From: Escherichia coli
GTDB taxonomy: Bacteria; Pseudomonadota; Gammaproteobacteria; Enterobacterales; Enterobacteriaceae
Length of the DNA stretch: 360 nt
Assembly: GCF_003334255.1 (NCBI RefSeq)
Contig: NZ_QOWU01000253.1
Reading direction: 5' to 3' (one strand)
Below, one piece after another: positions 1-360 of the stretch; the stretch's first letter is position 1; every line of letters starts with the position of its first letter. The notes beneath the pieces are model-generated. The model worked only from the letters and a program-made list of their open reading frames with translations, ran no database searches and was not told the origin of the DNA. Both the position numbers and the translations under genes were made by a program.

Positions 1-77
1 GGCTACGTAGCTCAGTTGGTTAGAGCACATCACTCATAATGATGGGGTCACAGGTTCGAATCCCGTCGTAGCCACCA
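1..77 (+). tRNA. metT: tRNA-Met, elongator type, anticodon CAU (CAT at 35-37); complete 77-nt gene with encoded CCA
   Basis: Acceptor stem 1-7 GGCTACG pairs perfectly with 67-73 CGTAGCC; discriminator A74; CCA at 75-77. Anticodon stem 28-32 CATCA pairs with 40-44 TGATG; 7-nt loop 33-39 CTCATAA has T two positions before CAT and A after. D-arm motif AGCTCAGTTGGTTAGAGC; T-loop TTCGAAT at 55-61. A fully paired G1-C72 end excludes initiator tRNA-fMet, which has an unpaired C1. Matches my recollection of E. coli elongator tRNA-Met; symbol assumes the first gene of the metT operon. Confidence 0.93.
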
Positions 78-87
78 TCTTTTTTTT
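78..87 (+). other. 10-nt inter-tRNA spacer, TCT followed by a T7 run; likely single-stranded precursor-processing region
   Basis: Sequence TCTTTTTTTT lies between the CCA of tRNA-Met and G1 of tRNA-Leu. It is too short for any promoter, so the genes must be co-transcribed. U-rich single-stranded spacers are typical endonuclease (RNase E) entry sites in polycistronic tRNA precursors; that role is inferred, not visible in sequence. Confidence 0.5.
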
Positions 88-172
88 GCGGGAGTGGCGA
101 AATTGGTAGACGCACCAGATTTAGGTTCTGGCGCCGCAAGGTGTGCGAGTTCAAGTCTCGCCTCCCGCACCA
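88..172 (+). tRNA. leuW: tRNA-Leu, anticodon UAG (TAG at 122-124), class II tRNA with long variable arm; 85 nt with encoded CCA
   Basis: Acceptor stem 88-94 GCGGGAG pairs perfectly with 162-168 CTCCCGC; discriminator A169; CCA at 170-172. Anticodon stem 115-119 CCAGA pairs with 127-131 TCTGG; loop 120-126 TTTAGGT gives anticodon TAG. The 85-nt length implies a long variable arm (around 132-149), as expected for Leu. T-loop TTCAAGT around 150-156. Consistent with E. coli leuW (tRNA-Leu reading CUA/CUG). Confidence 0.92.
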
Positions 173-195
173 TTCACCAGAAAGCGTTGTACGGA
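173..195 (+). other. 23-nt inter-tRNA spacer between tRNA-Leu and tRNA-Gln
   Basis: Sequence TTCACCAGAAAGCGTTGTACGGA. No recognisable -35/-10 promoter pair fits in 23 nt and there is no obvious stable hairpin; consistent with a processing spacer in a polycistronic precursor. Confidence 0.5.
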
Positions 196-270
196 TGGGG
201 TATCGCCAAGCGGTAAGGCACCGGTTTTTGATACCGGCATTCCCTGGTTCGAATCCAGGTACCCCAGCCA
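196..270 (+). tRNA. glnU: tRNA-Gln, anticodon UUG (TTG at 228-230); 75 nt with encoded CCA
   Basis: Acceptor stem 196-202 TGGGGTA pairs perfectly with 260-266 TACCCCA, giving the U1-A72 pair typical of bacterial tRNA-Gln; discriminator G267; CCA at 268-270. Anticodon stem 221-225 CCGGT pairs with 233-237 ACCGG; loop 226-232 TTTTGAT gives anticodon TTG. T-loop TTCGAAT at 248-254. Matches the tRNA-Gln1 (UUG) isoacceptor; I cannot tell glnU from glnW by sequence alone. Confidence 0.92.
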
Positions 271-285
271 TCGAAGAAACAATCT
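271..285 (+). other. 15-nt A-rich inter-tRNA spacer between tRNA-Gln and the second tRNA-Met
   Basis: Sequence TCGAAGAAACAATCT, purine/A-rich and unstructured; same reasoning as the other spacers. Confidence 0.5.
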
Positions 286-360
286 GGCTACGTAGCTCAG
301 TTGGTTAGAGCACATCACTCATAATGATGGGGTCACAGGTTCGAATCCCGTCGTAGCCAC
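286..360 (+). tRNA. metU: tRNA-Met, elongator type, anticodon CAU (CAT at 320-322); partial, truncated by the window edge 2 nt before the end of the CCA
   Basis: Positions 286-360 are base-for-base identical to positions 1-75 of the first tRNA-Met. The window ends at the first C of the CCA, so the gene presumably continues 2 nt beyond 360. Symbol is tentative, assuming the second Met copy of the metT operon. Confidence 0.9.

Follow-up and report, generated by a model that had tools for sequence, protein, structure and literature searches.

A 360-nt stretch of Escherichia coli DNA, referred to here as the window, carries tRNA genes in the order Met-Leu-Gln-Met and is, with a probability that we put at roughly 93%, the promoter-proximal part of the metT operon in a six-gene allele, whose tRNAs would be made as one precursor and separated by RNase P. 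The metT operon is already known and no new mechanism is called for, in line with the original prediction, which had presented the array as a known arrangement and not as a novelty. That prediction named the right locus but not its exact organization: the canonical K-12 order contains two tRNA-Gln(UUG) genes, whereas the window contains one. The window is thus a copy-number allele of the metT locus and not a different operon, and across the analyses described below we found no evidence contradicting its annotation as part of metT.

Gene content of the window

ARAGORN called four tRNA genes in the window, all on the + strand, and the Rfam model RF00005 matched the same four genes over its full length (model positions 1 to 71). 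The RF00005 scores were 71.1, 57.6, 62.1, and 71.1 bits in order (E = 8.6e-16 to 4.5e-12), each above the gathering score of 29 bits, and these matches are far beyond chance. Each gene is therefore recognized as a tRNA cloverleaf by both methods, which bears out the order Met-Leu-Gln-Met on one strand that had been read from the sequence.

The first gene, an elongator-type tRNA-Met(CAU) at positions 1 to 77, is identical to K-12 metT and metU and encodes its own CCA. It is followed by a 10-nt spacer at 78 to 87, TCTTTTTTTT, which contains a T-run at 80 to 87. The second gene (88 to 172) encodes a class II tRNA-Leu(UAG) with a long variable arm, is identical to K-12 leuW, and also carries an encoded CCA; the 23-nt spacer downstream of it, TTCACCAGAAAGCGTTGTACGGA (173 to 195), is identical to the K-12 leuW-glnU spacer. 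The tRNA-Gln(UUG) gene at 196 to 270, again with an encoded CCA, is identical to both K-12 glnU and K-12 glnW; no other Gln(UUG) gene separates Leu from the second Met. A 15-nt spacer, TCGAAGAAACAATCT (271 to 285), identical to that between K-12 glnW and metU, leads into the second tRNA-Met(CAU) gene at 286 to 360, the metU equivalent. Over the 75 nt that are visible, this second Met gene is 100% identical to the first (286 to 360 versus 1 to 75). The spacers thus measure 10, 23, and 15 nt, within the predicted range of 10 to 23 nt. The tRNA genes had been estimated to fill 337 bp, but the actual count is 312 of 360 bp. It had also been claimed that all four genes encode CCA, which can be read directly in three of them; the fourth ends ...GCCAC at the window edge, where the CCA is cut after its first C, and the next two bases are CA in the identical locus of E. 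coli strain AVS0747 (locus L009).

A CAU anticodon is also found in initiator tRNA-fMet and in tRNA-Ile2, the latter being marked by lysidine modification. In the window, assignment of the CAU genes to elongator tRNA-Met is supported by the pairing of G1 with C72 in the RF00005 alignment and by identity to K-12 metT and metU, which are annotated as tRNA-Met(CAU). Published work likewise gives metT and metU as “Met m” (PMC7049720). Minimum-free-energy folding returned a cloverleaf for the Gln gene only, the Met and Leu genes adopting alternative shapes. Because such alternative folds are usual for unmodified tRNA sequences, we gave them no weight against the covariance-model matches. Six open reading frames of 40 to 83 aa in the window were considered as genes and rejected as spurious, as all of them overlap tRNA genes.

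Identity of the locus and comparison with K-12

By string match, the window is identical at 360 of 360 positions to the genome of E. coli AVS0747 (NZ_CP124467.1), where it occupies L009:1215-1574. The AVS0747 array consists of Met, Leu(tag), Gln(ttg), Met, Gln(ctg), and Gln(ctg), spans L009 1215-1811, and is flanked by asnB and ubiF; the window is its start, and AATTCTGAATG is the sequence to be expected downstream of the window in a six-gene allele. A match to the window was present in 5,424 of the 5,426 complete E. coli genomes. Membership of the operon rests on this identity to other genomes; the window itself holds no promoter, terminator, or flanking gene.

We compared the window and the exact-match genome with the K-12 metT operon, a seven-gene array in the canonical order Met-Leu-Gln-Gln-Met-Gln-Gln. 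The tRNA-Met, tRNA-Leu(UAG), and tRNA-Gln(UUG) genes are identical to their K-12 counterparts, so that gene identity and order on one strand agree with zero tRNA-gene mismatches against metT, leuW, glnU/glnW, and metU, and the 23-nt and 15-nt spacers are also identical. AVS0747 shares with K-12 the position between asnB and ubiF as well as a single sigma-70 promoter and a terminator. These results confirm the near-identity to the metT-leuW-glnU locus that the original prediction had expected. The two tandem Gln(UUG) genes that lie between leuW and metU in K-12 (glnU and glnW) are represented in the window by one. In alignment, this difference appears as a clean 109-bp gap that takes out precisely one Gln(UUG) gene together with the 34-nt spacer between glnU and glnW. 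Apart from this gap, the sole difference between the window and K-12 is one added T in the first spacer, which carries T8 in the window and T7 between K-12 metT and leuW.

Origin and frequency of the one-Gln(UUG) allele

We used a 48-nt probe spanning the glnU-glnW junction in megablast searches to estimate how often the second Gln(UUG) gene is missing. The junction was matched in 5,324 of 5,426 complete E. coli genomes, leaving about 100 genomes (about 2%) without it, an indirect estimate that is based on the absence of a match and takes in a few genomes with (Met-Leu-Gln)x3 arrays. A 201-nt Leu-Gln-Met probe gave one-piece 100% matches in 8 genomes, a number that is an undercount, since true exact matches were scored as “2 pieces, 98.5-99.1%.” Among individual genomes, we observed the Gln(UUG) deletion on three T-run backgrounds, namely, T8 in AVS0747, T7 in MG1655p (a K-12 derivative), and T6 in AS19-RrmA-. 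Its occurrence on three backgrounds suggests that the identical 75-bp Gln repeats have repeatedly undergone unequal recombination or slippage. The six-gene allele would thus have arisen from the seven-gene operon by loss of one of its two tandem Gln(UUG) genes, most likely through unequal homologous recombination or slippage between glnU and glnW.

We considered whether the single Gln(UUG) gene could instead be an assembly artifact, with glnU and glnW both present in the organism and the 109-bp tandem repeat collapsed into one copy. Such a collapse is possible for any one genome, as the two 75-bp genes are identical and recur every 109 bp, and the single copy of MG1655p, set against the two copies of the K-12 reference, is what it would produce. 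However, the junction match is absent from the approximately 100 complete genomes mentioned above, which come from many laboratories; ordinary reads are longer than two copies of a 109-bp unit and should normally resolve them; and expanded alleles have been recovered in other assemblies, so the locus can be resolved. While the lost Gln(UUG) gene could be an assembly collapse in some records, we consider this account of the window improbable.

The window could also be an internal unit of an amplified (Met-Leu-Gln)n array, in which case a Gln gene and not a promoter would lie upstream of position 1. Arrays of the form (Met-Leu-Gln(UUG))x3-Met-Gln(CUG) do exist in complete genomes (TUM2805, GF130, and STK78-E), in each of which the window pattern recurs three times, in overlapping copies, with a period of 284 to 285 bp. 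Yet all of these copies carry T7 or T6 in the first spacer and are 359 or 358 nt long, whereas the window carries T8, and the only exact match that we found occupies the promoter-proximal position of a six-gene operon. The two readings differ in the expected upstream flank, which would be ...CCATCGAAGAAACAATCT for an amplified-array unit and the operon leader ...GCGAAAAAAAAAGAT for a promoter-proximal position. Based on these observations, there is only a slim chance that the window derives from an amplified array, and cotranscription and RNase P processing would be the same under either reading.

Four separate transcription units or a phage- or plasmid-borne tRNA island found no support in our searches and are effectively refuted: promoter-like and terminator-like sites are lacking in the window, whose longest spacer measures 23 nt; Leu and Gln tRNAs that are 85 to 91% identical to single window genes do occur in phages, but coverage of the window by any phage record is 24% at most; and full-length “plasmid” matches of at least 96% identity sit in records of 0.28 to 5.4 Mb, while the one small “plasmid” match (28.8 kb) consists of degraded tRNAs with 92.7% identity, so that phage and plasmid origins are for practical purposes excluded. 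The small record, CP043024.1, is labeled an E. coli plasmid and carries a degraded copy of the operon (L013 4001-4662) made up of Met, a shortened Leu, a 320-nt gap, and two Gln(ctg) genes of odd length. It has almost no annotated features and looks like an error-rich chromosomal contig mislabeled as a plasmid.

Transcription of the array

On neither strand of the 360-nt window did we detect a sigma-70-like promoter or an intrinsic-terminator-like site, in agreement with the prediction that the array, with its longest spacer of 23 nt, contains neither. The U8 tract that follows the first Met was considered as an internal terminator and rejected; it lacks a terminator-like site, and its local folding is no stronger than that of shuffled sequences (z = -0.18). 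A promoter with a GC-rich discriminator had been predicted upstream of position 1, and the exact-match locus contains a candidate for it: in AVS0747, TTGACG-17-CATAAT at L009:1145-1173 agrees with 10 of 12 consensus positions, ends 41 nt upstream of the first Met, and is directly followed by the GC-rich discriminator GCGCCCCGC (GCGCCCC). At the other end of the array, an 11-pair hairpin with a T-run lies 3' of the last Gln (L009:1817-1842); no other terminator-like hairpin was found on the operon strand. K-12 carries the same promoter and terminator sites. Both are consensus matches, and their function is predicted. In K-12, the full-length seven-tRNA transcript has been seen directly (PMC2241853). 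By analogy, transcription of the six-gene allele would start at the single sigma-70 promoter with its GC-rich discriminator, yield one precursor, and end at the intrinsic terminator after the last Gln gene.

Processing of the precursor

Experiments on K-12 have established that removal of the terminator comes first and is due mainly to RNase E, the enzyme that also cuts glnV and glnX apart (Mohanty & Kushner, PMC2241853), while the upstream tRNAs are separated by RNase P (Mohanty & Kushner, PMC2241853; Kime et al., PMC3985628). The only RNase E sites detected lie downstream of metU (Kime et al., PMC3985628), and metT and metU have been assigned to an RNase P-dependent operon (PMC7049720). All of these results were obtained with the seven-gene operon of K-12. 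If they are transferred to the six-gene allele of the window, RNase E would remove the terminator first, and RNase P would then be expected to cut at each tRNA 5' end, at window positions 1, 88, 196, and 286, given that the RNase E sites detected in K-12 are confined to the region beyond metU. The 10-, 23-, and 15-nt spacers would be left whole as 3' trailers for exonucleases; for example, TCTTTTTTTT would become the 3' trailer of Met once RNase P has cut at 87/88. Thus, cuts by RNase P are expected to separate the tRNAs of the window, in an order that we infer from K-12. The original prediction had named RNase P together with spacer endonucleases. The RNase P part agrees with the separation of the upstream tRNAs in K-12, but the same K-12 data (PMC2241853, PMC3985628) give no support to endonucleases acting within these spacers.

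This scheme would make the window allele similar to the RNase P-dependent operons (valV-valW, leuQ-leuP-leuV, secG-leuU, and metT), which have short spacers, in which RNase P makes the sole endonucleolytic cut between neighboring tRNAs, and in which the entire spacer stays as a 3' trailer for exonucleases (PMC2241853, PMC7049720). In metT, unlike in operons that depend on RNase P alone, RNase P is stimulated by prior removal of the terminator by RNase E.

Copy-number variation at the metT locus

The metT locus occurs in versions with five genes (Escherichia whittamii), six genes (the window type), and seven genes (K-12) and in three 11-gene arrangements. The 11-gene arrays are (Met-Leu-Gln-Gln)x2-Met-Gln-Gln in ST95-32, Met-Leu-Gln-Gln-Gln-Met-Leu-Gln-Met-Gln-Gln in Origami2-DE3, and (Met-Leu-Gln)x3-Met-Gln in TUM2805, GF130, and STK78-E. 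Arrays in the variant loci lie at L001 1197-2296, L002 999-2095, L006 to L008 at about 1089-2139, and L004 83-565. Unequal recombination between identical Met or Gln repeats can account for all of these arrangements. The Met-Leu spacer likewise varies: its T-run (window positions 80 to 87; also seen in L003, L007, and L012) is a homopolymer of variable length, with T8 in the window, ST95-32, and AVS0747, T7 in K-12, Origami2, and TUM2805, and T6 in GF130 and AS19-RrmA-. In MG1655p, the array (L011 914-1508) holds one Gln(UUG) gene, compared to two in the MG1655 reference (L003); either passage in the laboratory led to the loss of a copy or the assembly collapsed the repeat.

Outside E. coli, a search of 100,044 species-representative genomes found a single-Gln Leu-Gln(UUG)-Met arrangement with identical tRNA sequences only in E. 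whittamii and Enterobacter sp. kpr-6. Both share the order Met-Leu-Gln(UUG)-Met, the single Gln(UUG) gene, and nearly identical spacers, which differ from those of the window by 1 to 5 nt; both are draft assemblies. E. whittamii differs in having a five-gene operon, with one Gln(CUG) gene followed by the terminator. The Enterobacter sp. kpr-6 locus ends at the first Gln(CUG), with any genes further downstream out of view.

The annotation itself matters little, as this is a textbook operon whose transcription and processing have already been dissected experimentally. Only the recurrent variation in copy number at an essential locus is of mild note. tRNA-Gln(UUG) is the expected decoder of CAA. 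In MG1655(DE3), the metT transcription unit is essential, and every E. coli gene for elongator CAU(Met), UAG, UUG, and CUG(Gln) tRNAs lies within it (PMC11480407); therefore, in strains with one copy, a single gene supplies all tRNA-Gln(UUG). We speculated that the one-Gln(UUG) and 11-gene alleles represent a recurrent, selectable gene-dosage polymorphism and not neutral slippage or assembly noise. If true, this polymorphism would tune the supply of tRNA-Gln(UUG), tRNA-Met, and tRNA-Leu(UAG) between lineages, an idea that we regard as doubtful. The metT operon is absent from the text of McDonald et al. (2015) on E. coli tRNA copy number (PMC4539685). More simply, natural and laboratory strains alike have gained or lost repeat units at this locus, which is a small example of tRNA gene-dosage plasticity and a caution for tRNA gene counts derived from assemblies.

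A further variation lies outside the array. Relative to K-12, AVS0747 and WP8-S18-ESBL-07 carry approximately 430 bp of extra DNA between asnB and the metT promoter. This DNA holds a coding sequence on the - strand for a 145-aa hypothetical protein, WP_000943484.1, without a match in NCBIfam or Pfam, at L009 444-881 (also L010 445-881); the coding sequence is frameshifted in WP8-S18-ESBL-07.
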